DNA of 64,000 bases from a virus, in IMG/VR virus record IMGVR_UViG_3300027432_000002. One strand, 5' to 3'. The notes under the pieces were generated by a model. It had not been told where the DNA came from. It searched no databases and was given only the letters and a program-made list of their open reading frames with translations. Both the position numbers and the translations under genes were made by a program. Shown here piece by piece: positions 8,546-53,240 of this stretch (the first letter of the stretch is position 1; each line of letters starts with the position of its first letter).

Positions 8546-10302
8546 GGAACCGTGAGAACGATGAGACGTGCTCCGTCAGCTGGAACGTTGGCAGGCGAGG
8601 CACTACCGCTCGTCAACTGAATCGTTGCAGAAATCGTATGCGATCCAGCTGTAGCGATAAGAAGTGCACATCGATTATAAATGTATTCGTGGGACAGTTC
8701 GTCCACTGCGAGAATATCGATTGCCACTCCATCTACAGGAGTGCCGTCTTGTAGAATGGTAAACGTGACTATCGCGTCGGAACTAACGTTTGCGAGATAA
8801 GGAGTTGAGAACCAAACGATAGCTTGGTCGGTCGGAGGAAATACAATAGCCAGTGCTGTAAGTTGATGCGATGCCCCATCGGACCAATCAATAAGACTTG
8901 GATTCTGCGCCTGATGAACGATCGCTCCAGCACCGCTCGCGCCCGTTGCGCCTACCCCTCCCGTACTGCCGGCCGATCCGGTAGCTCCTGTTGCTCCCGC
9001 TGCACCATTTGATCCGTTCGTTCCGGCGGATCCAGTTGCCCCTTTGGCGCCTGTTGCTCCTGTTGCGCCAACTCCTCCCGTGCTGCCGCCCGCTCCCGTT
9101 GCTCCCGTGGCTCCCGTCACTCCAGCGCCGGTAGCGCCTACGCCTCCCGTTGTGCCCGCAGAGCCTGTCGCTCCGGTAGCACCGTTCGTGCCGTTACTCC
9201 CTGTAGCGCCCTTAACTCCCGTTGCGCCGGTAGCGCCAACTGCTCCAGCACCACCTACCGCTCCCGTTGCGCCAGTTGCGCCAGCTCCAGTAGCACCTGT
9301 ACTACCTGCTGCACCAGCAGCACCAGCAGTGCCAGTTGCTCCGGTAGAACCGTTGGTGCCATTGGTTCCTGTCGCTCCCTTGACTCCCGTTGCGCCGATA
9401 GCTCCAGCTACGCCAGCGGCACCAGTAGCCCCCGCTGCACCTGTAGCTCCTACTGTTCCCGCTGCGCCCGTAGCTCCTGTCGCGCCAGCGCCGGTAGCTC
9501 CAGTTGTGCCTGTAGCTCCTGCCGGTCCGGTTGCTCCACCACCAGGGCCTGTTGGTCCCATGGTTCCCGTAGCACCCGTGGCTCCAGCGCCTGTTGCTCC
9601 CGTTGCTCCGGGAGAGCCTGTTGCGCCAGCAGTACCTGTTGCGCCTGTCACGCCAGCGCCAGTAGCGCCCGTTGCTCCACTGCTGCCTGTAGCGCCAGCG
9701 GTTCCCGTAGCGCCCGTGACCCCAGCTCCGGTAGCTCCTCCGCTACCTGTAGCGCCCGCAGTTCCCGTAGCGCCTGGTGCTCCCGTAGCGCCCGTGACCC
9801 CAGCGCCGGTAGCCCCAGCGGTTCCCGTTGCCCCTGCTGTGCCCGTTGCGCCCGTCGCGCCTGGAGGTCCACTAGGACCACCGGACGGTCCTGTCGCTCC
9901 TGTAGCGCCACCACCACCGCCAATAGGCCAAGGGTCTGGAGTGATACCTTGTCCTGCGAAATAACCTTCCGATGCAATAATGAGCGCAATGATTGAATTA
10001 CTGAGCTGAGTGAACGTGGACGGAGTCAGCGTCTCCGTATTCATCTCCGTGTAGCGATTTTCCCAAACCGCTTTACACGCTTTTTCGATGATGAAAACTT
10101 GGAGTGTGTCTGGAGGGTCTGTATCTGGATTCAGCTCCCATGCTTGATCGAATGAAATAGAGAAAGCTCCAGCAATCATTGCGTAAGGAGCATAGTCACT
10201 AGGGACAGCGTCTTCGATCCACCGTCCGCTCGCAGCGAATCCAGAGATGATTCCGGAATATGCTGCGGTGAAGACTGTTATGTCGTTGGGTACGTAAGAC
10301 AT
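8542..10302 (-). CDS. collagen-like fibre protein (YVPN anchor family)
   Basis: Conserved N-terminal domain of about 125 aa, long Gly-X-Thr/Ala tract, beta-rich C-terminal head. Confidence 0.85.
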
Positions 10303-10355
10303 GGGCGGTGGTGTCCTTTGTTAGTTGACGAGATTGTTATACCAGTCGCGCTCGG

Positions 10356-12293: not shown

Positions 12294-12312
12294 GGTATTT
12301 AGTACCTTTCAA

Positions 12313-13989
12313 CTACCACGAAATTGCGCATACACCTGCGGTTTGGGTGTTTGGAACGTTTACGGTGTGCAAAACGCTAGAGTCATTAGTTGCTCGGATT
12401 GAAAACGTATGCGTTCCTACCAGACCAGCGGCCACCCAGGTGATGGTACCGTTGGCATATCCTGTTATGGGGGCTGTAATTGCAAGAATGGTTGGGCCTA
12501 TTTGCGTCTCCCCTCCTGTTCCGGCGTCTTGAATGAGTTCGAATAAAATCGCATCGCCAGGGACAGAAGCTTGAGCAGTCATAACGCCAGTTACTAAGAC
12601 TCTGCCCACTGGACCGGAAGGAATGCCTCCCACTCCCTCGTACGTGCATGACCATGCCACACTGCCAGGACCAGTTCCGGGAGGGATGGACCCAGAATTG
12701 AATCCTTCGAGAGTTGAAAAGATCCCACCAGTCCCCGTAGCTCCCGTTGCGCCGATTCCTCCCGTACTGCCGGCCGATCCGGTTGCGCCCGTTGCGCCTA
12801 CTCCTCCCGTACTGCCGGCCGATCCGGTTGCTCCCGTAGCACCATGCACACCAGTAGCTCCCGTTGCGCCCACTCCTCCACTGCTTCCACCAGCTCCCGT
12901 TGCGCCCGTTGCGCCCGATGCACCGGCGCCTGTAGCGCCTGCCGATCCGCCAGCACCCGTTGCCCCTGTCGCTCCAGCTGTCCCATTGGTTCCAGCCGAT
13001 CCGGTAGCTCCTTTCGCGCCAGTCGCTCCTGCTGCTCCAGCAGCACCCGTAGCTCCCGTAGCCCCTGTCGCTCCAGCTGTCCCATTGGTTCCAGCCGATC
13101 CGGTAGCTCCTTTCGCGCCAGTCGCTCCCGCTGCTCCAGCAGCACCCGCTGCTCCAGCAGCACCCGTAGCTCCCGTAGCCCCAGAAGCTCCAGCCACTCC
13201 CGTAGCGCCAGCGCCGGTAGCTCCCGTAGAACCTAGAGGACCAGTTGCACCTTGAGGGCCTGTCGGACCAGACGCTCCACCACCAGGCCCCGTTGCTCCA
13301 ATGGTTCCCGTAGCGCCCGTAGCACCAGCGCCCGTTGCGCCAGTTGCGCCTAGAGAGCCTGTGGCACCAGCAGTACCTGTTGCGCCAGTAACCCCTGCGC
13401 CAGTGGCGCCCGTTGCGCCTAGCGATCCTGTGGCACCCGGTGCTCCTGTAGCTCCCGTCCCTCCTGTACCTGTAGCCCCACTGCTACCTGTAGCGCCTGC
13501 GGTTCCTGTAGCGCCCGTCGCGCCTGGAGGTCCGCTAGGCCCTCCTGACGGTCCGGTTGCTCCCGTAGCTCCACTTCCACTACCAGATGGCCACAATTCT
13601 GGAGTGATTCCTTGACCTGAAAAGTATTCATCCGAAGCAAGAACGATAGCAATGATTGAATTACATAGGGTAGTAAACGTGGATGGTAGAAGCGTCTCCG
13701 AATTCATCTCCGTGTAGCGGTTTTCCCAAACCGCTTTACAAGTCATCTGAATGACCAACACTTGAAGTGTGTTTGGAGGTACTGTATCAGGATTGATTTC
13801 CCACGCTTGATCAAAACTTTGCGCAAATGCGCCAGCGACCATGGCATACGCAGAGTAATCAGCGCTATTGCTATCCTGAACCCATCGTCCACTTGCAGAA
13901 AGTCCCGCGATGATTCCAGAATACGACGCTGTATACACAGTTATGTCGTTGGGTACGTAAGGCATGGTTTCGCTATCCTTTACTGACAC
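12313..13989 (-). CDS. collagen-like fibre protein (YVPN anchor family)
   Basis: Same anchor (start may be MPYVPN), long GXT tract, C-terminal head. Confidence 0.85.
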
Positions 13990-14372
13990 GGAACGTTGCA
14001 GGTCTGTATACTTCCACCATCAAAAAGACAGGCCATCCAAGCAGGCTGTTCCGAGTCCGAATGTTCGTCCGTGACCGCTTGGAGACCGTCCGGTGTCGCC
14101 GACAGACAGCCTCCAATCACAAGTTCTGTGTAGACCGTTTGCGCGGTCGCTGGAGGAGGACTCGTTGGAGCGCAAGATAGGATAGATAGAAGAAAGCCGA
14201 CTGCTTTGACCGTTGACATACAGAGAAACTTTTTAGAGCCGCAAGTGACACATTCAGTCATGAGTCGCTCTTTCCCATCCGAGCTAATCGCTCGAATGAG
14301 TCGAACCTTCTGCCAACCGAACTTATGCACAAGCCAGTGCCAAAGTCCGACCCTCCAAAGTCGAGCGCTCAT
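13980..14372 (-). CDS. hypothetical Cys-rich, possibly lipoprotein-like protein
   Basis: TGATG coupling to the peptidase; internal hydrophobic FLLSILSC segment (alternative start 14219). Confidence 0.5.
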
Positions 14373-16429
14373 CAGACTGGCCAAGAAGCGGCCAATCCTG
14401 CTTGGACCAGTCCTTCTGCACTCGCTCTCGTCAGAAGCGGATGGCCTGCGGCTATCCTGGCGATAGCCCACGCCTGCGCTTGCGCGAGCGTAACAGGTCC
14501 ACTTGGAGTAGGTGGCGGAGGGATGGGAACGGGAATGCTTTTACCGAAGATGGAATTGAAATCCGAAACCAAATCCGAGTACGCGAATCCGCTTGGCGTC
14601 TTGGCCGACGCTTTGATCATCCAGTCCGGCGTCACTCGGACTGCGGCGCCTCCTCCAGCACTTTCTATGCAAAGGGCGGCGATGGCTTTCCACGTCATCG
14701 TACCGAGTAGGCCCCAGGTCATGACCTGAGCGCCCTGGGAATTGGTCCCAACGATGGCGACGTTCGGCGAGTTATAGGCGCACGACCCGATGCAATGCCC
14801 GTTGTTCGGATTGGGGGCGGCCACATCCCAGAGAAAGCCATTGCCGCTCGGGAAGGGATTGACGTAGCTATCTGGCAAAGAAAGCCACATCTTGAGATTG
14901 CCAAACGCTTCGATAGCGAACTTCACTTCCGCCTGGTTGGTCATGTCGACTTCGGCATAACCCGCAAGCTTGGTACCATCGGCATACGGATTTTGCGTGA
15001 AGTAGTTGAGGGCGGTGATTGGGTCTGTTCCTTGGTCACTTGACGGAACGGCCGGATTATAGCCAGTGATGATGCTGTACGCCGCGAGCGTTTGCGCGGC
15101 CGTGTACGCGTAGAGCTGTCCGGCGTTGCCCGTGACGACTCCGATGAAATGTGCCTCTTCGGCCAAGACGCAATTGCCAGAAATGAGAATTTTGCCGTTA
15201 CGACGAGTGACGAGAGTTGAATTCGGAACCGTCGCGCAGAATACTTCGCCATGATATTCGTCGAATTCAATTCCTACAGATTTGGAACTGCGGGTAATTG
15301 ATATATCTGACCTGAAGTTTTCGTTTACAACATGTTCCGGAAAGTGACCGATAATGTCTATTCCGTTTTGGTTTACTCCACCCTGTCTCGGTTCGCGTTT
15401 GTAGATAGCTCCACGTTTACCCACACGTAGAAGTAATTCTTGGATATCATCCGCCAACCGACTGCTTGAAGTATAGAATTGTCGGCCTTGATCCTCTTCC
15501 TGTTTATGTCTTTGATCTCCGTAGAAAGATAGAAATTCAGCGATCTGTTCTTGATCTGCTACCTTGATAAGATCTGGAATTCGTTTGAATGGTGAATGGT
15601 GCACGTCGCCCGTATACGCGTTGACACGAAGCCATCGCGCTAGGTCCGCATCGGTAAACGTCCAGACGCCACGTCGACTTGGTTGCTCTCTAATGTCAAG
15701 AGAGTGCGCGAATTTTGCTACTTCTTCATATCGATCTTCATTGAAGCAGCAAAAGGATATTACGTTTCTATTATGTTCGTCACTACGAACGTAGCCGTCT
15801 GAGATAATGAGAGATAGAAGCTTGATGAGGTCTGTACCGTTCCATTCTCTAGAACCGACTGAGAGTTTGAGTAATCTGGTTCCTACGAATCCGCGTGTGG
15901 CTCCAGGGATTAGACCTCTGTGCGGAAGAGCGCCGACAGGAAGAAACTTCATCTTGCCGTAATGGGCGCTATTCGGAACGTACGGTTTTGGAATATGATA
16001 CGGAGAAACGAGCATGCGATGATTTGGAGTAAGCGCGAAGTCAAGACGCTTATGTGATGAGAACACCATGGGGCCATGATGCGGGCGACGTCGAATCGAA
16101 ATTGGCGCCTGAAATTCTAGCATACCTGTAGTCGTGTTCATCGTTCCAAGTAGGGACGATCCGTCGTAATCTGTCCAAAGACGCCAACCGTGTTCGGTAA
16201 GAACTTCGGTTTTCTCATCATGACAATCGCCCACCGAGTCATTACCTTCTACGTTGGTAATGACAGGCATCGCGGGCGCGGAGTAATCACACGACGGAGA
16301 CGAAGTGGGAATGTTCGCCATGTCCATATAGTGCGACAGCTTGATCTTCGGCCGATGGGGCGAAGGGATCTTGCACGCCCCGATAACGACGTTGCGGTTC
16401 AGTCTCGGTACCCAAATGACTTGTCTCAT
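14372..16429 (-). CDS. papain-fold cysteine peptidase interrupted by an intein
   Basis: Spliced sequence reads GNDSVGD-CVLAEEAH...NGHCIG...VMTWG; start MRQVIW coupled to the upstream stop. Confidence 0.75.
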   Translation of the reverse strand: MRQVIWVPRLNRNVVIGACKIPSPHRPKIKLSHYMDMANIPTSSPSCDYSAPAMPVITNVEGNDSVGDCHDEKTEVLTEHGWRLWTDYDGSSLLGTMNTTTGMLEFQAPISIRRRPHHGPMVFSSHKRLDFALTPNHRMLVSPYHIPKPYVPNSAHYGKMKFLPVGALPHRGLIPGATRGFVGTRLLKLSVGSREWNGTDLIKLLSLIISDGYVRSDEHNRNVISFCCFNEDRYEEVAKFAHSLDIREQPSRRGVWTFTDADLARWLRVNAYTGDVHHSPFKRIPDLIKVADQEQIAEFLSFYGDQRHKQEEDQGRQFYTSSSRLADDIQELLLRVGKRGAIYKREPRQGGVNQNGIDIIGHFPEHVVNENFRSDISITRSSKSVGIEFDEYHGEVFCATVPNSTLVTRRNGKILISGNCVLAEEAHFIGVVTGNAGQLYAYTAAQTLAAYSIITGYNPAVPSSDQGTDPITALNYFTQNPYADGTKLAGYAEVDMTNQAEVKFAIEAFGNLKMWLSLPDSYVNPFPSGNGFLWDVAAPNPNNGHCIGSCAYNSPNVAIVGTNSQGAQVMTWGLLGTMTWKAIAALCIESAGGGAAVRVTPDWMIKASAKTPSGFAYSDLVSDFNSIFGKSIPVPIPPPPTPSGPVTLAQAQAWAIARIAAGHPLLTRASAEGLVQAGLAASWPV
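15173..16225 (-). mobile_element. intein (351 aa) with a LAGLIDADG-type homing endonuclease region
   Basis: Block A CHDEKTEVLTEHGW, block B LTPNHRML, LLSLIISDG, YTSSSRLADDIQELLLRVG, C-terminal YHGEVFCATVPNSTLVTRRNGKILISGN|C. Confidence 0.92.
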
Positions 16430-16725
16430 TTTCCACCATCCGTCTTGGTCGCTAGAAGTTTCGCCTGAAGAGCCGGTACGAGATTGGGATGATCCTTGGC
16501 CCACGAGCTATTGATGAGCGCGTTGATGAAATCCACGACGAACTGCTGTTCACCCGGATAGCAGCTGAGCGCAATCGTGACCGGATCGGTTTGACCCGAT
16601 TCAACCGCGCTCTGGATACAGAGTTCGATGTTGGCAATATCGGGAGGAAGGTTGGGAGACTTGAGTGCTGAGCATCCAAGTGCGCAGACCAGAACAAACA
16701 CTGGGCCAATTATCATCTTCAGCAT
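16426..16725 (-). CDS. putative lipoprotein
   Basis: Hydrophobic N-terminus ending in ALGC (lipobox-like). Confidence 0.6.
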   Translation of the reverse strand: MLKMIIGPVFVLVCALGCSALKSPNLPPDIANIELCIQSAVESGQTDPVTIALSCYPGEQQFVVDFINALINSSWAKDHPNLVPALQAKLLATKTDGGK

Positions 16726-16765
16726 TGAGAGTCTCCTTAGGCACTGTGTACGGCTAATTCATGAA

Positions 16766-17029
16766 CTACTTGGTCGCTGCGATGATTCCGAACACCCCTT
16801 GCACAGCTCCCGTAATCGGAATGACGAGGTTGGCGAGTTCTACACACTCTTTAATGATGGTGAGAAAAATGATCCACCCATCTGGTCCTGGAATCTTCCC
16901 ATAGTCTTTGTAGGACTTGACGATAAGCAGTTTCTCATCGTCACTGCATGCGAGAAAACCTCGCACGTCTGCTTGACTGAGCATCGGTAGCGCTACTACG
17001 ATAGCGACGATAGCCTCGTCTTTGCTCAT
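16766..17029 (-). CDS. small membrane-associated hypothetical protein
   Basis: Coupled ORF with a hydrophobic C-terminal half. Confidence 0.6.
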   Translation of the reverse strand: MSKDEAIVAIVVALPMLSQADVRGFLACSDDEKLLIVKSYKDYGKIPGPDGWIIFLTIIKECVELANLVIPITGAVQGVFGIIAATK

Positions 17030-17253
17030 TGACATGGGATTCCAGAATCGAACGTATCAAGTTTCTGATCTCGGATGACGGCTTGGATAGCGCAGTGACT
17101 GGCTCGAATGAGCGCCGCAGCGGGCGTATCCGCGTCTTGGTAGTTATAAGCCGCAGCGCTCGTTCGAGAAGCGTTTTCGATGTTGGAGATGTCTTCGGCC
17201 GGGAGGCCACCTGCGCAACTTATGAGAGTTACGCAGGCTAATACGCGTAGCAT
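17026..17253 (-). CDS. putative lipoprotein
   Basis: MLRVLACVTLISC signal/lipobox-like start, coupled to the upstream fibre stop. Confidence 0.55.
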   Translation of the reverse strand: MLRVLACVTLISCAGGLPAEDISNIENASRTSAAAYNYQDADTPAAALIRASHCAIQAVIRDQKLDTFDSGIPCQ

Positions 17254-18332
17254 CAGGCAACCGGAACAACGGTCACGTTGGCGCCACCAGCGCCGATTTG
17301 TGCAACCGTTGGGAGTGGAGAGAACGTGGTCACTTCGAAATGGAACGTGTGGGCTCCAGGGCTTAGACCCGTGACAAGTTCGGACCATGCAAAGGAAGTG
17401 TCGTATCCAACCCCTTCACCGGCAGTGAATTGCGTAATGGCCACACTCTGAACGAGCGCAGCATCGACGTACATATCCACATCCATTTGGTCGTTCGCTC
17501 CACTTGGCTGGTAATGGAAAGCCATGAACGTGGACATGTACGCTTTGCCGCTCGCTCCTACGGTCACCGAACCGGTTGCGACCGTAATGGTGGTTCCAGT
17601 CGAAAAATCGATGAGCGAACCGTTGGTGAAAACCGCCGATGCACCCTGCGTTCCGGACGGTCCGGTAGCGCCCGTAGCCCCTCCGCCTGGTCCCGTCGCT
17701 CCTGCCGCGCCCGTGGCGCCCGTAGCCCCTCCACCTGGTCCCGTCGCTCCTGCCGCTCCAGTGGCGCCTGTAGCCCCTCCGCCACCAACTCCCGTCGCGC
17801 CTGTTGCCCCTGCCGCTCCGGCAGCTCCTGCCGTACCTGCGGGACCGGTAGCGCCTGTGGCCCCATTGTCACTTCCCGCATTGACGATTGGGTTCTCCGC
17901 AGTACCCGTGATGGTAACGTTGGTCCCTGCTGAGACCGATTGAACTCCTCCGCCAGGCCACGGTAGCGGTGTAATGCCTTGACCTGAAAAATATCCTTCT
18001 CCTGCAATGATGAGCGCAATGATTGAATTACAGAGTTGGGTGAACGTCGATGGAGTAAGCGTCTCTGTCGTCATCTCTGTAAAGCGGTTTTCCCATACCG
18101 CTTTACACGCTTTTTCGATGATGAAGACTTGGAGTGTATCCGGAGGGTCTGTATCTGGATTCAGCTCCCACGCTTGATCAAACGAAATGGCGAAGGCGCC
18201 AGAGATCATCGCGTAGGGGGCATAGTCGCCCGGAGCCGCGTCTTCGATCCATCGTCCGCTTGCGGCAAATCCAGAGATGATTCCTGAGTACGCTGCTGTG
18301 AAGACGGTTATGTCATTGGGTACGTAGGCCAT
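17253..18332 (-). CDS. short collagen-like fibre protein (YVPN anchor family)
   Basis: Same anchor, GVQSVSAGTNVTITGTAENPIV linker, GAT tract, C-terminal head. Confidence 0.85.
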   Translation of the reverse strand: MAYVPNDITVFTAAYSGIISGFAASGRWIEDAAPGDYAPYAMISGAFAISFDQAWELNPDTDPPDTLQVFIIEKACKAVWENRFTEMTTETLTPSTFTQLCNSIIALIIAGEGYFSGQGITPLPWPGGGVQSVSAGTNVTITGTAENPIVNAGSDNGATGATGPAGTAGAAGAAGATGATGVGGGGATGATGAAGATGPGGGATGATGAAGATGPGGGATGATGPSGTQGASAVFTNGSLIDFSTGTTITVATGSVTVGASGKAYMSTFMAFHYQPSGANDQMDVDMYVDAALVQSVAITQFTAGEGVGYDTSFAWSELVTGLSPGAHTFHFEVTTFSPLPTVAQIGAGGANVTVVPVA

Positions 18333-28165: not shown

Positions 28166-29032
28166 CTACCCGTCGATTCCTAGTGTGACTGAGAATACGT
28201 ACGGATCGGTAGCGCTGTTATTGACGAGTGTCGCGGCATACGCTCCTGGTGGCAATGGATTCCAGAGCGGACAGTCGCGTGGGTCGTAGACTCGATTCAA
28301 GTTGTCGATGATGACTTGCGCTTCTTGATTGAGAATGGGATGAGGCGGAGTATTGATGCTACCAACCGTCACGTGAATGCTGGTAGCGCCAATTGGTTTG
28401 AGTTTACCTCCAGTAGTCGGAGGACGGTTGGGTGGAAAAAGTCCTCCGGCACTAAGGAACGTATCCTGCTGAGGAAAGAAGAGTTGGTAGCTGCTCGCAG
28501 CCGCAACAGGAATCGCGCACGTGCCAAGATACGTCGAAAATGGACCTGCATTTTCCGGATATGGAATATCGTAAAACGGTTGCTGCGATTCCGCAGGACG
28601 AAGACCTGGTGCAATGTTGATGACGACCGCATAGACTTGTCCAGGCAAGCCCACTTCGCTACCGGGAGGAGAGCCGTCGTAGACGCGAACATCAACCGCT
28701 TCGCCCATCCCGGAGATGGTGGTCCCACTCATGACGGACACCGAGCGTCGTACCGACGTTCCGTTGATGGTCCAGTTGATGTCCGCAAAGACGAGTTGAC
28801 CCGCGTTACCAAGAGCCTGGTACTGCTGGGAGATATCAAACTGAATGGTGTAGACGCAGCATTCAGGAAAGCACACCTGCATCTTGACGACGTTGCCGGC
28901 GGCAGGCTGTCCAGGGTTGGCCGGAACGGTCGGTCCTTGGCAGACGAGGTTACCCGATTGAGACCATCCCGTTTGAGGGTTGATCTCTTTCGTGTTGTTC
29001 TGCATCATCAAACGTCGTGCGCCTGGAGTCAT
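28166..29032 (-). CDS. beta-rich structural protein (possible jelly-roll penton or minor capsid protein)
   Basis: Alternating hydrophobic beta-strand pattern, no TM; location in the structural arm; fold is inference only. Confidence 0.45.
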   Translation of the reverse strand: MTPGARRLMMQNNTKEINPQTGWSQSGNLVCQGPTVPANPGQPAAGNVVKMQVCFPECCVYTIQFDISQQYQALGNAGQLVFADINWTINGTSVRRSVSVMSGTTISGMGEAVDVRVYDGSPPGSEVGLPGQVYAVVINIAPGLRPAESQQPFYDIPYPENAGPFSTYLGTCAIPVAAASSYQLFFPQQDTFLSAGGLFPPNRPPTTGGKLKPIGATSIHVTVGSINTPPHPILNQEAQVIIDNLNRVYDPRDCPLWNPLPPGAYAATLVNNSATDPYVFSVTLGIDG

Positions 29033-34001: not shown

Positions 34002-35276
34002 CTAACCGATTCGCACAAGAGAAAACATCCGGTTACAAGATCCAGCATCAGAACCGTTGGCTGCGGGATTGGCTACCGTTACCGTATCTGTGCCTGTATT
34101 GGTGCGGTTATGGAGCGTAACACTTTGACCAGCGGTCAAGTGAATGATTCCGTGACCAATAATGGATTGCTCGAGAGTTGGATTGAGCGTTCCTACGAAC
34201 TGGTAGTTTCGCGCCACGGAAGCGCCGTTGACGTAAATCTCAAAAACGAAAGGCGTCGTTGCCATCGTGGCGTGAGTGCCCGTCACGTAAAAGTCGAACT
34301 CGTAATCTCCAGTGGATGCGACAACGAACGCAGAACCTGCGGGCGAAGGAACGGTTGTGAATCCTGCGTTTGGATACGGCGTAGCGCCCAGATCAAAGGT
34401 AACGTCTGCGTCTCCGCCAAGAGAGGTAGCACTGGCGCCGTACGCTACTCCGTACGCGGGAGAGAATCCTCCGCCTCCCGGTCCAGTTGCGCCTGTCGCC
34501 CCAGAAGAACCTGTCGCCCCAGAAGAACCCGAAGAGCCTGTCGCGCCTGTCGCCCCAGAAGAACCCGAAGGACCTGTCGCGCCTGAGCCTGTGGCGCCTG
34601 CGCTGCCAGTTGCGCCCACAGAGCCAGTCGCTCCAGTAGCACCTGTGCCCGTAGCGCCCGTAGCACCTGCGGCTCCCGTAACACCTGCGGCTCCTGTAGC
34701 CCCAGAAGCTCCCGTAGCGCCAGCAGTTCCCGTCGCACCCGTAGCGCCAGCGCCAGTAGCGCCCGTGGCTCCAGAAACACCTGTAGCACCAGCGCCCGTG
34801 GCGCCAGTAGCACCAGCGCCGGTAGCACCCGTAGCCCCTGAACTGCCCGTCGCTCCAGAAGGACCCGTCGCACCCGTCGCGCCACCACCTCCACCACCAT
34901 CTGGCCATGGTAGTGGTGCGATAGATTGGCCAGCGAAGTAATTGTCTCCAGCGATGATGAGCGCGATGATAGATTGACAAAGAGTTGTAAACGATGCTGG
35001 ATTGATCGTCTCTGACGTCAGGTCAGTGAAACGATTTTCCCATATCGCTTTGCAAGTCTTCTCAATCAAAAAGACGTTGAGTGTGTTCGGACTTGTATTT
35101 GGATTGATGGCCCACGCTTGGTCAAACGAAATAGCGAACGCGCCAGCGATAATCGCACTTGGTTCGTAACTGGCAGTATCAGTATCCGTCAAAACCCTAC
35201 CGCTCGCAGCCAAGCCGGAAAGAACTCCGGCATAGGCTGCGGTAAAGACGGTAGCACTGTTGGGTACGTAGGCCAT
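34002..35276 (-). CDS. collagen-like fibre protein (YVPN anchor family) with BclA/C1q-like head
   Basis: Anchor, GAT tract, G.YEFDFYV...[14 protein letters not shown] head. Confidence 0.85.
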
Positions 35277-36603: not shown

Positions 36604-36805
36604 GTGTCATAGCCATATTGCTTGCCTGGTGCATGACGTCACTGAGAGTCAATCCTTTTTCGTTGGCTACCGACGAAGCCAGTTTCATATATCGATTGTA
36701 CAGTTTTTGTTGAGTACGCATTGAAGTAGAAGTCATTGAGCCAGCGTACAAGCGTGCAGCCTTTACAAGAGACTCAAGTTTCTTGGAAGGGCGCTTATGA
36801 GGCAT
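36566..36805 (-). CDS. small protein, MPH-basic tag family
   Basis: MPHKRPSKK; TAATG coupling to the transglutaminase-like gene. Confidence 0.7.
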   Translation of the reverse strand: MPHKRPSKKLESLVKAARLYAGSMTSTSMRTQQKLYNRYMKLASSVANEKGLTLSDVMHQASNMAMTLGPIAPTPGKDF

Positions 36806-37386
36806 TAGCCCGTCCTCTTGAAGTAGGAGTTTTCATTTTCTTCCATACCACAGACCTTGCTCGGGTCCTCAAATGTGCCGTTGGGACCCATCACGAGAAT
36901 GTGGTAGTTCGTCTGATTGTCTTTCTTATCGACCATCCAGCGAAAGACTGGTTTGCTTTTGATTCCTTGCGCAGCGTACTCTGCCACAAGCGCGGCTGTC
37001 AGAGATTTGCAGTCTCCGAATCCTCGTTGGTAGAGTGCTGGAATAGAATCCCAGACTTGCGTACGGTCGTAGACGACACCACTCTCATAGAGCGGCGCGA
37101 TACATCCGGGTCTCATCTGAAGATAGATCAAATCAATCGCGCCAAGGCAGTGTAGGAGCGCCTGAAGTGCAACCGCGTTCGAAACCGGGTCTGATGCGGA
37201 ATCGAAGCACTGCGGCAAATCAAACGTAACACAATACGCCGGACCGTTTCGAAGGGTGGCGCCACGTTTCCCACAACTGCCTTGTATGGTTTCAGCGGAC
37301 TGGATGAGTATGTTTCTCACACGTCGGTTCTCTTCAGGATTTGAACCCTGGCAGAAGACGTGAGGGATACAGAACTCGATTTGCAC
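36805..37386 (-). CDS. transglutaminase-like (papain-fold) enzyme
   Basis: GFGDCKSLTA (Cys), YHILV (His), FEDPS (Asp). Confidence 0.75.
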   Translation of the reverse strand: MQIEFCIPHVFCQGSNPEENRRVRNILIQSAETIQGSCGKRGATLRNGPAYCVTFDLPQCFDSASDPVSNAVALQALLHCLGAIDLIYLQMRPGCIAPLYESGVVYDRTQVWDSIPALYQRGFGDCKSLTAALVAEYAAQGIKSKPVFRWMVDKKDNQTNYHILVMGPNGTFEDPSKVCGMEENENSYFKRTG

Positions 37387-37458
37387 GCTGAAATTCCTCC
37401 GCTTTGCTCTTTCGAGCTAATTCACGAATTGCGGCGAGATTACCTCACCGCAACGGAT

Positions 37459-38181
37459 TCAGCATCCACCACCGCCGGCAATTGTGCTGGGTCCTTGGAC
37501 GGTCGCGATGAACGTGTACGAGAACCCCGTGGCGAACCCCGGCGGAATGAAGCCAGTGTACGCCCCGCTGACCGTGAGCCGGTTCGCAGGCTCGAGGGTC
37601 GGCAGATCGAGGGCCACGCCCTGTGCGAGTGCCGAGTAGGTAAAGGCGTCCTCTGTGTCACCAACAAAAGCATTCACGTTCGCGACCTGGAGGCCCGTCA
37701 GAAGAACGAAGTTCGGCGCCGGAGCGTTCATGACGACACGCTGCGGGCGGATCTTCGTATTGGGCTGCAAGGTCATGTCGACGATGCTCGCGGGCGTGCC
37801 GAGCGTGAAGAGATTGCTCAAGGAAAACGAGTATCGTTCGATCTTGAGCAAGCTATTCTCGTTCGGGTCGAGAAGCGCCGCACGGGCCGCGGTATGGCCC
37901 ATGAGCTGGTGGTGATGGTGCCAAGCGCGAACCATCTCCGGATGCGCGTGACGCGCCTGGGGAGGGGCCGCCATGGGGGGAGCGCCTTCTGCGCCGTAGT
38001 CGTATCCGAACCCGTATCCGAAGTCCGCAACCTGACGATTGCGGGGCATCGGACGCGGCATCGGACGAGCCTGGGGATACGAGCGTCCACGCGCGTATCC
38101 AAAATCGGAACCCGGAAGGGCTCCCATGACCGCGGCAAGAGCCGGGTCACGCTGCGAAAGCTGAGAAGCGGTCGGTCGCAT
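37459..38181 (-). CDS. candidate major capsid protein (single jelly-roll-like C-terminal domain, disordered N-terminal arm)
   Basis: About 120-aa all-beta-patterned C-terminal domain; AAGGAG RBS; C/G-ending codons; own 5'UTR; adjacent to the transglutaminase-like gene. Fold is inferred. Confidence 0.5.
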   Translation of the reverse strand: MRPTASQLSQRDPALAAVMGALPGSDFGYARGRSYPQARPMPRPMPRNRQVADFGYGFGYDYGAEGAPPMAAPPQARHAHPEMVRAWHHHHQLMGHTAARAALLDPNENSLLKIERYSFSLSNLFTLGTPASIVDMTLQPNTKIRPQRVVMNAPAPNFVLLTGLQVANVNAFVGDTEDAFTYSALAQGVALDLPTLEPANRLTVSGAYTGFIPPGFATGFSYTFIATVQGPSTIAGGGGC

Positions 38182-38281
38182 TGTTGTTTCTCCTTGGTTG
38201 GTTTGATTATCGATTCGTCGTCGACATTACAACCCGGAGGCGACAAGATAATTCAAGAACTAAGAACAGAAACGAAAGTCT

Positions 38282-39532
38282 TTAGTACCCCGGATTGCGG
38301 TAGTACGGATTCATCGCCAACGCGGAGGCGTACTGATTGTACGCAGGCATCGGCCGACCATAGACATCCGCAGGCGAATACATCGGAGGAGGAATATAGG
38401 CCGGACCGAAGTACGGCAAAGGACGTAGAGGTTGCGCACGCCGTGGACTCGGACCGAGACATTCTCTTTTTGTATGCCAAATGCCGTCTATGTATTCGTA
38501 TGGCATTTGACAATGAGGATTTGGATGCGGTCGCGAAGCGGTAATGGTGTCCATCGGCATCATCATCGCACCAGATGGATCTCTGGTTACTGCAATGTTG
38601 CTCGCGGTGCCACGTCCAACCGCGTTGACGGCATCGATAACGCCACCTTGACCGCTCGTTGTGGGGTTATTGTCCTGATTGATGCGCTGGACTGGTGCTG
38701 GGCCTCGCGTCGCATTGGCGACAGCGGCCGTCGCTTGCGCAACGGAACCAACGGTCTGAATGATGTCTGTGAGGGTATGATCGTCGTCACCATCCCCCGC
38801 GAACACACCGGTCAAAGGAGAACGCGAAGGATACCGACCCCAATTGGAAAGAATCGGTGCGGAGAGATCTCCCGCGAAAACTCCCGTCGTCGGCGATCGA
38901 GACGGATACCGTCCCCAATTGGAAAGAATCGGTGCCGAGAGGTCTCCACCAAACTTCTTTTTCTTGGAGTACGGACTGTAAGCGTTACCGGTGGGAGCCG
39001 AAGCAATCGACGCGGTAGCCATCGAAGCAATCGGAGAACGCATCGACGAGAGGGGTGAGCGTATTCGCGAAAGACGATTCCATGAGGACCGCTCGTTACC
39101 AAAGTAGCCTGGACCGTCGTATTCCCATCCAAATGCGTGAGAGCAACTTCCGCCCATCATCGGGTCACAACCGAAGTCGTCGGGAATATCATTCTCGATC
39201 GAGTCACCAGCCATCGGAGCCAGGTGATTGCTGTGGTAGAGATCGGGTCCGTAATGACCACGCCAACCAACCCGAGGATCGCCGCTCATCGCGCTCGTTT
39301 GGCACGAGGCGCACGTTCCGCCGCATGTGCATTCATAGCCCATGTCTCCACCGTCGTCTCCTCCGTCGTCTCCTCCGTCATCTCCTCCACCGTCATCATC
39401 TTGAGAAGGTGGTGCAAAATCTCCACCTCCCCCTTGATGGTGCCTTTTGTGGTGACTGTGCTTGTGCGAGCTTCCCTTGTGGCCGCCAGTGCTGCGCGCG
39501 CGCCCACCAATGTCAAATCCAAAACCGTCCAT
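38282..39532 (-). CDS. segmented, low-complexity structural polypeptide
   Basis: His/Lys, Gly/Asp, Cys and Pro/Tyr blocks; tandem repeat GDLSAPILSNWGRYPSRSPxTGVFA. Confidence 0.7.
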   Translation of the reverse strand: MDGFGFDIGGRARSTGGHKGSSHKHSHHKRHHQGGGGDFAPPSQDDDGGGDDGGDDGGDDGGDMGYECTCGGTCASCQTSAMSGDPRVGWRGHYGPDLYHSNHLAPMAGDSIENDIPDDFGCDPMMGGSCSHAFGWEYDGPGYFGNERSSWNRLSRIRSPLSSMRSPIASMATASIASAPTGNAYSPYSKKKKFGGDLSAPILSNWGRYPSRSPTTGVFAGDLSAPILSNWGRYPSRSPLTGVFAGDGDDDHTLTDIIQTVGSVAQATAAVANATRGPAPVQRINQDNNPTTSGQGGVIDAVNAVGRGTASNIAVTRDPSGAMMMPMDTITASRPHPNPHCQMPYEYIDGIWHTKRECLGPSPRRAQPLRPLPYFGPAYIPPPMYSPADVYGRPMPAYNQYASALAMNPYYRNPGY

Positions 39533-39615
39533 GGCTGGCTGCGTCAGAGCTAGTCTTTATCTAACTCTGTCCTTTCTTCGCTACGTAGTTTATGAATTAC
39601 GTGAGAGAGTGCAGC

Positions 39616-40626
39616 TCAGGTAGCTGCGAGAACGAGCTGTCCGTTGTGATTCGAGATGCCCATTCCGTTGCCAGTGGGATCGGTTTGTACTGACGAATGC
39701 TGCCAGTTACCGTCCGTCTGTTGACAAGTGCAAGCGAGCGTCTGACCGTCGTAGTTGCACGTGTTGCACGTCTGCTGGTAGCTTCCGCCGGGAAGCGGTT
39801 GCGGACCCTGCTGACCATAGCCCTGCTGGCCATAGCCCTGCTGACCGTAGCCCTGCGGTCCCATCCCCTGCTGACCGTAGCCTTGCTGACCGCCTTGGTG
39901 GTGATGGTGATGGTGATGATGATGGTGAGGATACTGATCACCACCACGCGGGCGATACCCCTGCGGTCCGTACCGATACGACGGAGCCTGAGATGTCGGC
40001 TGCGCTCCGCGAAACATGTAGGCCAACTGTTCGGGATTGCCGAAACTGCCTTTGGAAGCCTGATGAAGGAGTAGCTCTTCACCATGAAACCTGCGATCAC
40101 GGTCGGCCAAGATTCGAGAAAATCGCTCTCGTTCGAGATGGGAGAGTCGTCTCCAAGCGCGTACGTCATAACGCCGGTCACGCGGGTCAAACCGCGGATC
40201 GACGTAGAACGGTTGCGGATGATGGTGCCGGTGATGCCGCGGATGGTAGTAATCCACCGGATACATGCTTGGTAGCGTGGAGTACGGTGAATAAGGCGGA
40301 TAGCCAACCGGAGGCGCCGATGGGGCGATCACGTCCGCAACACCCTGAGCAACCTGGCTCACAGCGTCGAGAACGCCTCCCGATCCTCCCGCAGCATCAT
40401 CCTGCGGATAGGTCCCGTCGTCGGTTGTGTCCGTATCGTCCTGGCCGAATACGCGAAAGCCTGGCGTAGACGAATCGCAGCCGAAATCGTCCATGTCAGG
40501 AGCGATAGGGGGAGGACCAAAATCTCCCCCATCCATTTGCCACGGCGGAAGTGGCAAGAACTGGTGGTGATGGTGACGGTGACGGTGGTAGCGCTCTTGG
40601 TCGCGCCAATTTCCAAATTCGGACAT
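39616..40626 (-). CDS. segmented His/Gln/Pro-rich protein with a C-terminal cyanovirin-N-like (CVNH) repeat
   Basis: GSYQQTC..C.YDGQTLACTC...DG...SS......ISNHNGQL. Confidence 0.7.
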   Translation of the reverse strand: MSEFGNWRDQERYHRHRHHHHQFLPLPPWQMDGGDFGPPPIAPDMDDFGCDSSTPGFRVFGQDDTDTTDDGTYPQDDAAGGSGGVLDAVSQVAQGVADVIAPSAPPVGYPPYSPYSTLPSMYPVDYYHPRHHRHHHPQPFYVDPRFDPRDRRYDVRAWRRLSHLERERFSRILADRDRRFHGEELLLHQASKGSFGNPEQLAYMFRGAQPTSQAPSYRYGPQGYRPRGGDQYPHHHHHHHHHHQGGQQGYGQQGMGPQGYGQQGYGQQGYGQQGPQPLPGGSYQQTCNTCNYDGQTLACTCQQTDGNWQHSSVQTDPTGNGMGISNHNGQLVLAAT

Positions 40627-41462: not shown

Positions 41463-41911
41463 TTACTTGGAAGATCCGTATGTCTTGACCTTCCACATTC
41501 CGAGATTTTCCCCGAGGTAATCTTCGAAGGTGGAGAGAGTTCCCTTCCTCTTTCCAACAAGAAGGTCAACCCTCAAATTTCTGACCTGACTATCGGATAT
41601 TGAGCTTGGTCCTTTTTCGCCACGGGCCAAAGCTTTCATATCGAAATAGTCGCGAATGATTTTCTTCTGAGAAGCCAGGTCAGGCTTTCTGCGCTTCCGT
41701 TTGTGTGGCATTACCTCGTCCTCCGCTCCGCTACTTGGTCTTCTCGATCTAGAGCTTTGTTGTACTCTTTGCCGAGAAACTTCACCTTCCGATCATGAGG
41801 AAAGTCGAGTAAGCCTTTGCCTTTGCGTGCCGCCGAGTTGATGGCTTTGACGAGTAGTGCGTGAATTTGCCAAGATGCCCGACGTCTACTTCGCTTCCGC
41901 TTGTGAGGCAT
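41463..41911 (-). other. two coupled MPH-basic tag family genes (41463-41711, 41711-41911)
   Basis: MPHKRKRRK and MPHKRKRSR. Confidence 0.75.
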
Positions 41912-42589: not shown

Positions 42590-42700
42590 GTGCTACCGCA
42601 CCCTAGTTAATGCAGTAAACCCCACCGTCCAGTTTATCCAGTTAGGACGGTAGGGTACGCTGCGGAGTTGAATTGGCTTGAGGAGTACACCAGTGTTAGA

Positions 42701-42729
42701 AGCGTATCATACTACTTGGCACTTGTCAA
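42701..42729 (-). promoter_or_regulatory. sigma70-type promoter at the head of the structural arm
   Basis: TTGACA-17bp-TACGCT on the minus strand. Confidence 0.7.
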
Positions 42730-45700: not shown

Positions 45701-48086
45701 TTGGCTGCGTCCCGCTCGGCGGTCACGCGTGCGAGGTCGGCCTCAAGGCCGTCGATTGTACGCAGCTGCTTCTGCACTACATCGAATCGAATATCGTCCA
45801 GTCGCTTCACTTCGGTCACTTCCGCTTCCAGCCTCTCCATCTCCGCCAGCACGAGCGGTAGGAGCTCGCGGGCGTCGCTCCCTAGACCTGAGAGCGGCTT
45901 GATGTCGCTGGCGTTGAACTCGTCCAGCGCCTTATTGATGCGTTCTCGCAAGGTCATGAAGCGTATCACGGTTCGTTCTCCTTTCTCTCTCTCAGTTTGA
46001 CGCTCTTGACAAGCCGCTGAACTCCATCCGGTTCTACCCCAAGAAGGTAAAGTGTATGAACTTCCGGGTCTCGTGCAATCTTGAGCTTGGCCAGGTGCTT
46101 TTCGGCCGTGGCCAGACAATCGAAGTTCTTACGGTGCCGTTCTCGCGCAGCACGCACGCCGCCAACGATGATGCGGTAAGTGGAGTAGTTCACGACTTTT
46201 AACCTTCTTCTCCGATCGGAGGAAGCTTCGTCCACTCCGCACCCGTATCAAGTGTCCATACTTGTCCCAAATCATCCAACGCAAACAGTCGATCAAACGC
46301 TGACCCTGGACTGAGTATGAGCTGCACGATCCTTCTCTTCGGTCCCTTGTCCGCCGGAGGAGGTGCCGGAGGGGCGGTCCGTTCAAGCTTGATGCGAAGG
46401 TCTTTGATGGTGGCGCGCTGAAGGAGACAGGTTGCCCGCTCTGCCTTGAGTTCAGCAACAAGTTTCTGAATCAATTGGAGCGGAAAATCCGTTCCGTTCA
46501 AGAGTGCAAGTTCTGCCTGCCGAATCAAGTCATCGACTGCCGATTTCTTCGCCGGACTAGGGACCTCGGGCGCCGTTATCGGACTAGGAGCCTTGTCCGC
46601 CGGAGGAGGACTAACTTGATTAAGAATCCACCGATTGTGCTCAAATGCATTATTGATAGCTTTTGAACAATCTGGACAGAGAACAGCGGCTGCCTGAATG
46701 GTAATTTCTTCGCGTTTTTCCTTATCCGTATACGCCTGTAGATGCAGCGTGAGAAATGGCCACGTTAGATCCGTACCAAGCACGCCTGGAATTTCGTAAT
46801 GCCGTCCGCATCCGTGACAGTTACCACTAGGCCAATGCGCTTGAATTCCTAGATCGATTCTCATGGTTTGGTCTTTCATCGGACTAGCATCCTTGTCCGC
46901 CGGAGGAGGGGCGTTGTCGGCCGGAGGAGGGAGGTTATCGGCGGGGGACTGGTCTCCTACTCCCACCGGAACAAGAACTGCGTTCGGGGCAATCCTAGCA
47001 GCACGAAGGGTGGATACGATGTATGCGCCTTGATGATGAAAGTAAACGGTCGCCCTTGATCGGATGTCCCAATTCCCTCCTACTTCCGCCTCACTATTCC
47101 ACCAGAAAGGACCGTCGCTCAAAACTTCTCGGGACTCTTGAATGACGTACTTCATGGGTTGATCCGTTGAAGGAGGGACGGGAGCTTTGCCGTAGAGAAG
47201 TTCATTTGTTTCCTCTAGTTTTGCGCGAAGATCTTTGATGGTAGTTTCAAGCTCTGCGCGCTCTTGAGAGAGTTGAGAACTCACAGCGAAGCCTGCGCGA
47301 TCAAGTTTTTGCATAGGACTCGGTTGTCCGCATCCCCTACACTCTTTGAGCCACTCTTTGGCGTCGCCGTTGAAGACCTTGCAGTTACCACACGTCCAGC
47401 CGTTGAGAAGGGTAGTCGGCGAACCACTGCATGCGGGGCAGTCACGCGGACCTGGTCTGTCAAGTCGAAGACCGCAGTAGGCGCACGTACCGTCTGGAGA
47501 AGTGGAACCAATGATAAAAAGAATCTTGCCAGAACCTTCGCAGACGCTGCAAAGGGCGGAATCGCGATCCGGGAATGCGCCGTTACCGTCGCAGGCTTTG
47601 CATGGAAGGTAGACGGTCTGACGAAACGTCATTGATGGAATCGTCATTGATGGAATCTCCTAGTTCATGAATTACTTTCAGGGAATGAATTCGACCTTAC
47701 CGCCAATGAGTTTGGCTACAATCTTCGCACGGTCTTCTACGAATGGATGGGCGAGAAGGACTGCATATTCGTTTTCGGTTTCGGTCTCGACGTGGAGGTA
47801 AGTTCCTTCGACCGTCTTGATGTAGTGAGTTGGATCGGCGTCGTAGGAGTCTTGTCGGAGCTTGGTCGGATACGCCCACCCAAGGACAATGCGATCGTCA
47901 GAGGTGGTGACGATGTATTTGCTCATTCTGATTCGAAGGAAAGAACAAGCATTTCTTTGTCATCGGCATTGTCAGTATCGAGATAGACTGACTCTAACGT
48001 ATTAATGTCCATCTCAGTTTCGATGAACACTTCAAGATGGTCAGGATGGGTAGCAAGAATAGTTCTGAGTTCGATTACCGTCATGG
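42737..48086 (-). other. cluster of small hypothetical early-type genes (42737-43195, 43164-43838, 43835-44013, 44039-44308, 44305-44592, 44589-44864, 44861-45196, 45193-45969, 45966-46235, 46199-47647, 47678-47926, 47923-48086)
   Basis: Tightly coupled ORFs, several with Cys/His Zn-binding motifs. Confidence 0.65.
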
Positions 48087-51245: not shown

Positions 51246-51348
51246 AAGAACTAATTGTTGAATTGTTGCTTACCTTCCTTCAGACGAATCAGGAGTCAAA
51301 CCGAATAATCGGTGGTCTTGATGATTCGTCTTCATCGGTAACTAGCTA

Positions 51349-51966: not shown

Positions 51967-52041
51967 AGTAAGAAAAAAGAAAGAATGGTGGCCCAAGGGG
52001 GAAAAGGATTGGGCCACCAGTTTCCCTCAGGAGAAAAGGAC

Positions 52042-52482
52042 ATGATTAATCCGAAGAAAAAGACGGCAGCCGTTGGGTTTGATATCGAGCTAGGTGGTCT
52101 CTCTCGATTGCGGGTCGCACTCAAGACCGACCGCAAACTCGACAAGGGGCTTGTGGTTCTCGCCGTAAGGCCGCTTGATGCGCTCATCGAAGAGCTTGGG
52201 GTTTTGCACCAACAAGTGGCAAGCGAAGTCCCGAAGGGGCTCTCATCCTTGAAAAAGCGTGCTGGGGGACTTGTGCGCAAGCGAGACAACGGTTTCGAGT
52301 CGGACGTAGGCATGCTGTCCAAACTTCGGACGACCATCCGCATCGATACGTCACTCCTTCGCGCGCATGCGGATAAGGCCGTCGCATCTATCGACGAGTT
52401 GACCGATGCGCTTCTCACTCTCCACGAAACCGTCCTCACGCGCAAGAACTTGGTCGCGTCCATTACGAGGCGAACCGGATAG
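52042..52482 (+). CDS. hypothetical helical protein
   Basis: AAGGA RBS before MINPKKK. Confidence 0.6.
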   Translation: MINPKKKTAAVGFDIELGGLSRLRVALKTDRKLDKGLVVLAVRPLDALIEELGVLHQQVASEVPKGLSSLKKRAGGLVRKRDNGFESDVGMLSKLRTTIRIDTSLLRAHADKAVASIDELTDALLTLHETVLTRKNLVASITRRTG

Positions 52483-52523
52483 AAAAACGCCCCACCTCCC
52501 GGCTCAATCCGGAGAGGTGGGGC
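52483..52523 (-). terminator. intrinsic terminator (possibly bidirectional)
   Basis: GCCCCACCTCTCCGG-ATTGAG-CCGGGAGGTGGGGC-GTTTTT on minus. Confidence 0.75.
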
Positions 52524-52560
52524 TTGCCAATGGGTTGTCGACGACGAAACCGATTACCCA
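52483..52560 (-). ncRNA. putative small RNA of about 77 nt
   Basis: Lies between a TTGACA-17-TATATT promoter (52595-52567) and a GC hairpin plus U-tract (52523-52483); no ORF inside. Confidence 0.6.
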
Positions 52561-52643
52561 ACTCTCAATATAGGATAGCTGACCACAGCTGTCAATAGGG
52601 AGTTTGGAATCGCGCCCGTAGCGAGGGAGTCCGCGATGGCGAA

Positions 52644-53240
52644 GTGAGCGAACTAAGTCCTTGGGCGAAGGCCGCCCGGACAAGGAAACGCCGAAAGCGT
52701 GCGAGAGAGCGCGCTGCACGCGACCGATCCATTCGCGCTCGCCATGCAGCGCTCGTTCGATGGTACGGTAGTTCGTACTCCAATAAGAAGAAACCAAAGA
52801 CTCCAAAGAAGCCGGAATGGAAGACTCCTAAGAAAAAGGTAGTTACAGCCAAGAAAGGAAAGAAGAAGAAACCAGGACCCAAACCGAAATCGAAGAAAGA
52901 AGCGCTCGCCCAAGAAGAGATTCAGAGATTGAAAAGAAAGATTCGTGAAAAAGACAAGAAGGTCGCTATCATGGAGAAAGAAAGGAAACTCTTCAAAGAA
53001 CACATAAGACCCAAAGGTACTATCGAAAGTATGAAACGATTTGGAGCTGAATTTAAACTACCGCCCAAGATGAAACACGAGACGGATATCCAATTCGCCA
53101 AACGAGTCATCAAACAGATGATGGGCAAAAACATGTATACGGTGGAGGCAGCCATCGAACATTATAAGACCATTTCGGAGGCGACGGGAATTTCCGAGAC
53201 GAAAGCGTTTTCGCTCTTTATGAGTCCTCAAGCGGCATGA
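52644..53240 (+). CDS. highly basic DNA-binding protein
   Basis: Lys/Arg-rich histone-H1-like N-terminal half, HTH-like C-terminus. Confidence 0.6.
   Translation: MSELSPWAKAARTRKRRKRARERAARDRSIRARHAALVRWYGSSYSNKKKPKTPKKPEWKTPKKKVVTAKKGKKKKPGPKPKSKKEALAQEEIQRLKRKIREKDKKVAIMEKERKLFKEHIRPKGTIESMKRFGAEFKLPPKMKHETDIQFAKRVIKQMMGKNMYTVEAAIEHYKTISEATGISETKAFSLFMSPQAA

Follow-up and report, generated by a model that had tools for sequence, protein, structure and literature searches.

In the literature compared here, small RNAs (sRNAs) of phages target host genes, work at the locus that encodes them or are cis-antisense RNAs. The present analysis concerns a predicted sRNA gene on the minus strand (52483..52595) of a 64,000-nt stretch of viral DNA (IMG/VR record IMGVR_UViG_3300027432_000002; "the window" means this whole stretch), part of an uncultured virus of bacteria present in soil metagenome runs, and a complementary site located 14 kb away in the leader of a likely capsid gene (37459..38181, also on the minus strand). 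Judged from sequence comparison, a conserved sRNA gene with a co-conserved complementary site in this leader appears to be real, and functional pairing of RNA and leader is highly probable. The reading we prefer, to which we give a little less than an even chance, is that of a trans-acting sRNA that starts pairing through its loop, opens the leader and activates capsid translation; transcription, pairing in the cell, the closed default state of the leader and the opening step are all points that we infer. If this reading is true, virion assembly would be timed or scaled by an RNA key, with the structural operon on an ordinary host-type promoter, and the pair would be a compact one (35 nt of RNA vs. 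17 nt of target).

The closest described phage systems share parts of this arrangement. PreS (LPR1) of phage lambda is Hfq-dependent and its shown target is the host gene dnaN (bioRxiv 10.1101/2024.10.31.621285). As predicted for the present RNA, PreS is phage-encoded and pairs upstream of a start codon, exposing the ribosome-binding site, whereas here a structural gene of the virus itself would be the target, the pairing is longer (17–28 bp) and its start is loop-to-loop. IsrK of prophage Gifsy-1 acts on its own read-through transcript, from the same locus, and controls an antiterminator (PMC4825925). It resembles our proposal as a phage sRNA working in trans on a phage mRNA and turning an inactive structure into a translated one, but the target considered here lies 14 kb off and encodes a likely virion protein. 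Among bacterial sRNAs, DsrA reportedly activates through the rpoS leader. DsrA and StxS share with the present RNA their short length, their own promoter and terminator and a structured leader bound upstream of the ribosome-binding site; both bind the anti-Shine-Dalgarno (anti-SD) strand itself, whereas the invariant contact here is a hairpin tip and arm invasion is a prediction. StxS, too, is an activating sRNA on the rpoS leader (PMC12197685).

CopA of plasmid R1 derives from an antisense gene facing the replication operon with its coupled leader peptide tap (PMC12361487), and in antisense systems a YUNR loop motif has been tied to the first contact, with kissing loops (PMC2943612). Complementary hairpin loops, YUNR in one of them and an antisense gene facing a replication operon are all found here as in CopA/CopT, and the leader-peptide overlap recurs in two distant relatives, L021 and L020; unlike CopA, a cis-encoded repressor, the RNA of the window has no leader-peptide overlap and finds its mirror image in trans. 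In lambda, OOP RNA is antisense to cII (PMC12197685). The present RNA is likewise a small RNA with its own promoter, antisense within the early region, but it ends at the stop codon of its neighbour and overlaps no coding sequence. OOP RNA is 77 nt long. In phage T4, genes e, soc, 49 and I-TevI bear hairpins that sequester the Shine-Dalgarno sequence (SD), from which they escape by a late promoter inside the 5' arm (PMC3014915). Silencing of a late gene in long transcripts by a hairpin over the SD is predicted here as well; however, no late promoter inside the arm was found in the window, and an RNA would be the key instead. Our literature search, whose scope left most subscription journals and supplements outside, returned no case of a viral sRNA that works in trans on the leader of the virus's own capsid gene, and no publication could be matched to this virus group. 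The nearest case is CisR, which is said to derive from the 3' end of prtV and to inhibit the cep mRNA of the CTX phage. In a 2025 review, the term "capsid" is absent from the main text, a supplementary table of 38 unassigned sRNAs being outside our scope (PMC12197685).

The predicted RNA gene combines a promoter, a 5' domain and an intrinsic terminator on the minus strand, without a coding frame, as far as can be told at the sequence level. Its sigma-70-type promoter (52567..52595) has TTGACA at 52595–52590 and TATATT at 52572–52567, separated by 17 nt, and matches the consensus in 11 of 12 positions; it is one of two sites with this score among the nine in the window that reach at least 10/12. 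The 5' domain (nt 1–35, 52525..52559, with +1 placed at 52559) is predicted to fold into a hairpin followed by a linker, the 8-nt loop of the hairpin (52549–52542) carrying a YUNR motif. The terminator (52483..52524) has a 14-bp stem with one bulge (52489–52523), the loop AUUGAG and a U tract (5 U at 52487–52483). A sequence-only reading of the region, made beforehand by a model from the letters alone, had described the near-consensus promoter, the closing arms UGGGU/ACCCA of the 5' part and the terminator; promoter coordinates and score agree with ours, the arms are present in the predicted fold, and the terminator stands, giving a predicted RNA of 77 nt. The 78-nt minus strand folds at -40.6 kcal/mol (z -4.75; as good in 0/200 shuffles), and the terminator folds better on the minus strand both in the window and in the related locus L024. 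A general terminator scan of the window did not list it, probably because of its bulge. No Rfam 15 family reached the gathering threshold for the RNA (best nse_sRNA, 20.2 bits vs. 75, E 0.52), and the whole window contains neither Rfam families nor tRNAs. From these sequence features, transcription of a 77-nt RNA from its own promoter is likely.

Related loci were collected by a metagenome scan, which gave six, and a genome scan, which gave four (L019–L028). L024 and L025 are identical at the RNA and target sites and were counted once. Both RNA locus and capsid leader are covered by L024 and L028, the leader alone by L023, L026 and L019, and neither by L027; the RNA locus of L026 lies about 600–700 bases beyond the end of that locus, and that of L023 is likewise outside. 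Two distinct full RNA sequences were at hand. L020, L021 and L022 are distant relatives (42–63% identity over the aligned part), and every statement on L020 rests on an unpublished genome, G002. In the genome behind L019, the polymerase and gene 51985 gave no match. Proteins of the window were found on metagenome contigs of up to 77,674 bases; runs X1 and X2 are a possible source of the window and resemble one data set, and X3 and X4 have no cover of the RNA locus. No RNA run was among those listed for this DNA.

Between the window and L024, the -35 box is kept in 6/6 positions, the -10 box in 5/6 and the spacer in 11/17, and bases 52559–52525 are identical in the window and L024/L025 over exactly 35 nt (a global aligner gave 34/35 owing to gap placement). 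The two genomes match at 85 of 136 silent sites in the capsid gene and at 28 of 70 in the gene next to it. With a match rate of 0.62 per site, 35 consecutive matches have, by our own arithmetic, odds near 5e-8. Of the 22 longest exact runs listed for window and L024, all but 52525–52559 are, judged by their coordinates, coding. The assembly of run X1 contains one collapsed 35-nt contig corresponding exactly to 52525–52559, with a depth of 57 vs. 31–40 in the flanking contigs, which indicates a second strain having the same 35 bases and differing on either side. The promoter flank of this strain equals L024 over the 30 letters shown and, since X1 may be the source of the window, the strain is not a fully independent lineage. 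One terminator stem position shows compensatory variation: the pair is U-A in the window but C-G in L024, the second X1 strain has A-U, and the loop is kept. Beyond these loci, 18 IMG/VR matches to a 17-nt RNA pattern were set aside, as they have no promoter or terminator flanks and resemble chance coding matches.

The counterpart in the leader is a 17-nt core (38209..38225, minus strand; -44 to -28 from the start codon) predicted to form a 5-bp stem with a 7-nt loop and to pair with RNA nt 6–23. It is present in four of the six close leaders (window, L023, L024, L026), where all 17 columns are invariant, compared with 6/27 and 8/38 in its flanks; the four leaders are distinct from one another, with indels around the core. 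The 15.6 kb common to the window, L024 and L026 hold six invariant noncoding blocks, of which the core is one, the others being three copies of the palindrome WRTTCNNGAAYW, the start of the structural operon and an unexplained 14-nt block at a gene edge (46117–46130, invariant also in L023). A copy of the palindrome placed before the leader (38245..38264) is invariant in the same four leaders. The structural operon starts 4.5 kb upstream of the target gene with a sigma-70-type promoter and a conserved segment (42687..42729, minus strand); its TTGACA and downstream elements are seen in the window, L023, L024, L026 and L019, and the block 42687–42699 is invariant in the first four. An operon with the same promoter type as the RNA leaves room for post-transcriptional control. 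Two IMG/VR matches to the leader core were discarded, both standing in unrelated contexts.

Around the core, the leader is predicted to form a long hairpin. Its 5' arm (38230..38241, minus strand) contains an anti-SD CUCC and the sequence GGGUUG, the same in the window, L023 and L024 and altered in L026, and in folds and duplexes complements RNA nt 23–34. The SD AAGGAG (38190..38195, minus strand) is predicted to be paired in the lower stem of all four leaders, with a mean unpaired probability of 0.06–0.33, and in the lower-stem consensus 91.7% of cells are paired vs. 30–52% when slid. In L023 and L024, both hairpin arms have insertions, and these can pair with one another, a sign that the long hairpin is real.

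The match had first been noticed as a 13-mer of the RNA (52548–52536, minus strand) identical to plus-strand 38214–38226, 33–45 nt upstream of the ATG at 38181; this holds, it is the longest trans match of the RNA within the window, and the suggested flanking pairings of AUCG and CAACCC are present. The warning given with it, that the match alone is weak, proved right: for 4,807 of 100,000 dinucleotide shuffles, some place in the window was complementary over 13 nt, and one of eight shuffles reached or beat the raw duplex energy of -40.3, which was the best trans score of 6,396 windows. The match counts as more than chance because of its conservation in the relatives: a 12-nt complement to any of the six invariant blocks occurred in 13 of 100,000 shuffles of the RNA 5' domain, in a test devised after the match was seen. 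RNA loop bases 12–18, which contain the YUNR motif, complement the leader loop 7/7. The core duplex (RNA nt 6–23) comprises 17 bp with one G-U pair and one bulged U; beyond it follow a bulge of 4–13 nt, pairing to GGGUUG (window, L023, L024) and a short third helix. Predicted net binding differs little among the four leaders, those of L023 and L026 being tested against the L024 RNA: it spans -13.4 to -17.2 kcal/mol when all six contexts are taken together and -14.5 to -15.3 within the first of them. The window leader was bound equally well by 2/300 shuffles. When the RNA was scored against open reading frame (ORF) leaders, as had been proposed, the target came third of 340, the cis overlap ranking ahead of it and an opposite-frame ORF scoring the same. 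The expectation that both sites would be conserved and covary in related genomes was borne out in its first half, both sites being invariant; likewise, a trans-acting sRNA on this leader is supported by the conservation, which does not extend to the timing or tuning role once attached to it.

In the preferred reading, the loop of the RNA 5' hairpin would contact the complementary loop at the tip of the leader hairpin, the contact would extend to the 17-bp duplex, and pairing would then, probably, invade the 5' arm, freeing the SD and switching capsid translation on. Given functional pairing, we put activation at a little better than even: the core, at -28 to -44, lies outside the usual ribosome footprint, making direct blocking unlikely, a hidden SD before a capsid gene needs an opener, and pairing to the arm would explain the invariance of RNA nt 24–35. 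Opening the window SD costs 6.5 kcal/mol in one of two contexts and 5.2 in the other; once the full duplex has formed, the costs are 1.0 and 3.7. With the outer stem allowed, full unzipping in the window (-14.2, -15.5) is on par with core-only binding (-14.6). For a stiff 17-bp helix within a closed loop, the core-only model makes no charge; the truth should therefore lie between the two models. A drop in SD opening seen in 24/24 cofold cases was rejected as evidence, since truncated RNAs gave identical values and the model cannot keep the outer stem of the leader once RNA pairs in the loop.

Several observations weigh against this reading. Core-only binding with a closed SD is favoured by 5–9 kcal/mol in L023, L024 and L026, and still by 1–6 kcal/mol with 12 linker bases forced open; in L026, core binding by the L024 RNA even tightens the SD stem (4.0 to 9.3). 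Covariation in the lower stem was not above shuffles, and the opening cost of the leader ranks 12th among 30 genes, some with uncertain starts. Two of the six close leaders, those of L019 and L028, are without the core, and the RNA of L028 scores -4.1 on its own capsid leader. In a model that forbids kissing, the result on the worst of three leaders was equalled by nine of 200 shuffles. Predicted binding to gene 51361, early in its coding region, is as good as to the target (-13 to -16.5). No compensatory change between RNA and target was found in the two distinct genomes having both sites (window, L024/L025), where none could be visible because neither side varies. Part of the match comes along with the hairpins, as both stems contain the palindrome UCGA, which does not account for the seven loop bases.

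The alternative that survives best keeps the same RNA and target and reverses the sign: tip binding would leave or tighten the SD stem, and the 17–22 bp duplex would be cut by RNase III or otherwise silence the capsid message, a constitutive sigma-70 RNA holding capsid synthesis down in an early or quiet phase until the mRNA outnumbers it. Somewhat less likely than activation, it stays close behind: all pairing and conservation evidence fits it equally, the invariant part of the target is the core and not the arm, and core-only binding, favoured in three of the four leaders, keeps the cost of SD opening at its level or raises it. A promoter of host type would, in the early region, suit a repressor, and there is a precedent in OOP RNA, which promotes RNase III decay of the cII mRNA (PMC12197685). 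Repression has to contend, however, with a core lying beyond the ribosome footprint, with a leader already predicted closed, from which a repressor would gain little, and with the invariance of RNA nt 24–35, which pairing to the 5' arm would explain and repression leaves unexplained; moreover, the core-only energies that speak for it include no cost for the stiff helix in the closed loop.

The remaining alternatives concern the surroundings of the RNA gene. The convergent gene 51985..52482 (plus strand; 82% identical in L024 and found in L028), whose product has no PHROG, Pfam or NCBIfam match, ends with its stop codon abutting the U tract. On the other side, the promoter is overlain by a predicted plus-strand hairpin of the early mRNA (52560..52606; 8-bp inverted repeat plus outer stem), in which the bases of three inner pairs and of one outer pair have changed between window and L024 (two sequences) while still pairing, and one U-G pair fits the plus strand only. 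This hairpin, kept with changed pairs, suggests that early mRNA crosses the RNA gene, and explains the inverted repeat in the promoter spacer better than an operator, which was rejected. Downstream, an SD and a 3-codon minigene M-A-K-stop (52622..52648, plus strand) overlap the GTG start of the basic gene 52644–53240. Short M-A ORFs overlap the start of the next gene also in the relatives, with 3, 3, 6, 15 and 11 codons in window, L024, L028, L021 and L020, the next gene starting with GTG or TTG in the first three; judged from this overlap, coupling of minigene and next gene, or frameshifting, is possible. The plus-strand early arm begins at about 51,350 and includes genes for a DNA methyltransferase and a family B polymerase.

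One could do without trans pairing if a single protein, such as the Arg/Lys-rich product of 52644, bound similar hairpins of the RNA or early mRNA and of the leader, or if the RNA were a decoy. The plus strand of the RNA gene nearly reads as the leader core, gene 51361 has a related stem, NCGA-AUAA-UCGN, conserved in its leader (window, L024, L026), the neighbouring 52644 protein has an arginine-rich N-terminus, and no compensatory change was seen. This explanation is nonetheless improbable: the inner stem on the plus strand has an A-C mismatch (G-U on the RNA strand) and folds less well, promoter and U tract indicate the minus strand in the window, L024, L028, L021 and L020, and a decoy should copy the loop, yet the loop is a 7/7 complement.

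Slightly less probable still is that the unit mainly regulates the replication arm as a cis-antisense RNA of the CopA/tap-repA or OOP/cII type, with the capsid match as a secondary feature or relic. In L028, L021 and L020, a promoter and a terminator 75–100 nt apart, with unrelated sequence, occupy the same place facing the early arm, just before the homologue of basic gene 52644; in L021 and L020 the unit covers 19/19 bases around the start of the M-A ORF, and the conserved plus-strand hairpin suggests that early mRNA crosses the locus. In the window, L024 and L028, on the other hand, the RNA overlaps 0/19 of those bases and changes the opening energy by <2 kcal/mol; a purely cis-acting RNA, which stays complementary whatever its sequence, has no need of 35 invariant bases, and the conserved block of the leader would go unexplained. 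A cis role may exist beside the trans role. That no separate RNA exists, the hairpin being the terminator of gene 51985–52482 (it starts six bases past the stop codon) and promoter and match being due to chance (four promoter-like sites at 48–57 kb vs. 4.8 expected from shuffles), is very improbable, since the U tract is on the minus strand only, the hexamers are kept while the spacer drifts, and the 35 invariant bases lie outside the terminator hairpin.

None of the RNAs of L028, L021 and L020 binds its own capsid leader well (L021, -4.1; L020, -5.9, rank 32/63). The simplest history, with an order of events that we infer, is an old cis-antisense unit whose 5' hairpin became matched to the capsid leader in one clade. 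A broader proposal, which we regard as doubtful, makes the RNA a replication-to-assembly switch: of CopA-like cis-antisense origin, it would have become a trans mirror of the capsid leader hairpin, be soaked up by early mRNA and later unlock the capsid gene 14 kb away, sister lineages having swapped 5' hairpin and target. That the complementary early mRNA running through the RNA gene could soak up the RNA early, and so provide timing, is speculation. If the switch were true, the RNA would stand in for a late promoter in a group of jelly-roll soil viruses that has yet to be described.

Other potential partners of the distant RNAs were examined. The L028 RNA and the leader of the 39616 homologue share a 10-nt match over the loop, which counts as a mere lead because 2,828 of 50,000 shuffles did equally well and SD opening stayed unchanged at 4.4; a 13-nt match of the L021 RNA was rejected as a target because it falls within coding sequence. 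The L028 RNA (3642–3725) has an SD-like loop GAGGAG and four GG-purine motifs, three of them GGA, and matches a pyrimidine tract in the leader of the 39616 homologue (11010–11019) and another, duplicated, in that of the 51361 homologue (about 4500–4545); it might also be read as a Csr/Rsm-type sponge. The L028 capsid leader (13319–13370) contains an inverted copy of the outer arms of the RNA terminator (10- and 9-nt matches), with weak predicted binding. The L020 (44–125) and L021 (6697–6793) RNAs carry anti-SD tracts, that of L020 sitting in the terminator loop and matching two other genes at their SD, one over 9 nt and one over 8 nt. Gene 51361 keeps in its leader (about 51265–51308; also L024 and L026) a long hairpin with the tip NCGA-AUAA-UCGN and a changed closing pair, its stem resembling that of the capsid leader; codons 11–14 of the same gene, Asp and Glu codons maybe kept for the protein, are a possible second trans target.

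The target gene encodes a protein of 240 aa with an N-terminal extension and one jelly-roll domain, as judged from 290 homologues and a structure model (pLDDT 79.9; confident beta-sandwich at residues 114–233). The model matches an SPV1 chain (Z 7.0, rmsd 3.8, 121 aligned), an HHIV-2 chain (6.6, 5.2, 116) and P23-77 VP17 (5.9, 4.2, 107); all these matches have Z <8 and are tied with unrelated folds, an unrelated enzyme reaching Z 7.3. The protein has no sequence match in PDB or annotated phages, no relative in IMG/VR and no paralogue in the window; an Atlas search returned only unnamed viral clusters, and in all seven loci reaching that far the same gene follows the target gene. The designation as a capsid gene is plausible as to the jelly-roll fold (Z 6–7), the match itself being too weak for proof; with the model as the basis, the protein is likely the capsid protein, and a penton or other virion protein is possible. 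The product of 28166–29032 was tried as a double jelly-roll capsid and rejected, its model having two beta-sandwich domains and no capsid-specific match. The N-terminal parts of 37459, 38282 and 39616 repeat DFG, DYG or DMG motifs (36805–40626), and a conserved 193-aa protein with Cys, His and Asp motifs adjoins these DFG-type repeat proteins. Family searches with this protein were without match; we take its motifs to recall a transglutaminase-like protease, and the presence of a maturation protease together with its cut sites is possible.

Further features of the window are recorded here. The palindrome WRTTCNNGAAYW has 27 copies (0.94 expected) between 3809 and 62650, in most cases where two genes meet and frequently across a start or stop codon; it also occurs in L019, L023, L024 and L026, with none in the L028 and L020 loci, and might serve recombination, RNA processing or the binding of a dimeric protein to DNA. 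Small basic genes whose products start M-P-H-K-R-K (30262, 30615, 31031, 32510 and 41898) have a common 13–20 nt repeat, and L024 contains two copies of the region around 41688–41875. The minus strand also carries an endolysin gene and genes for collagen-like fibres. A LAGLIDADG-like domain lies within the larger protein of 14372–16504, which has an intein-like N-terminal match, and is probably an intein. Long exact repeats at both ends of the five collagen-like fibre genes (8542–18332 and 34002–35276), common to all five, suggest an exchange of modules among them.
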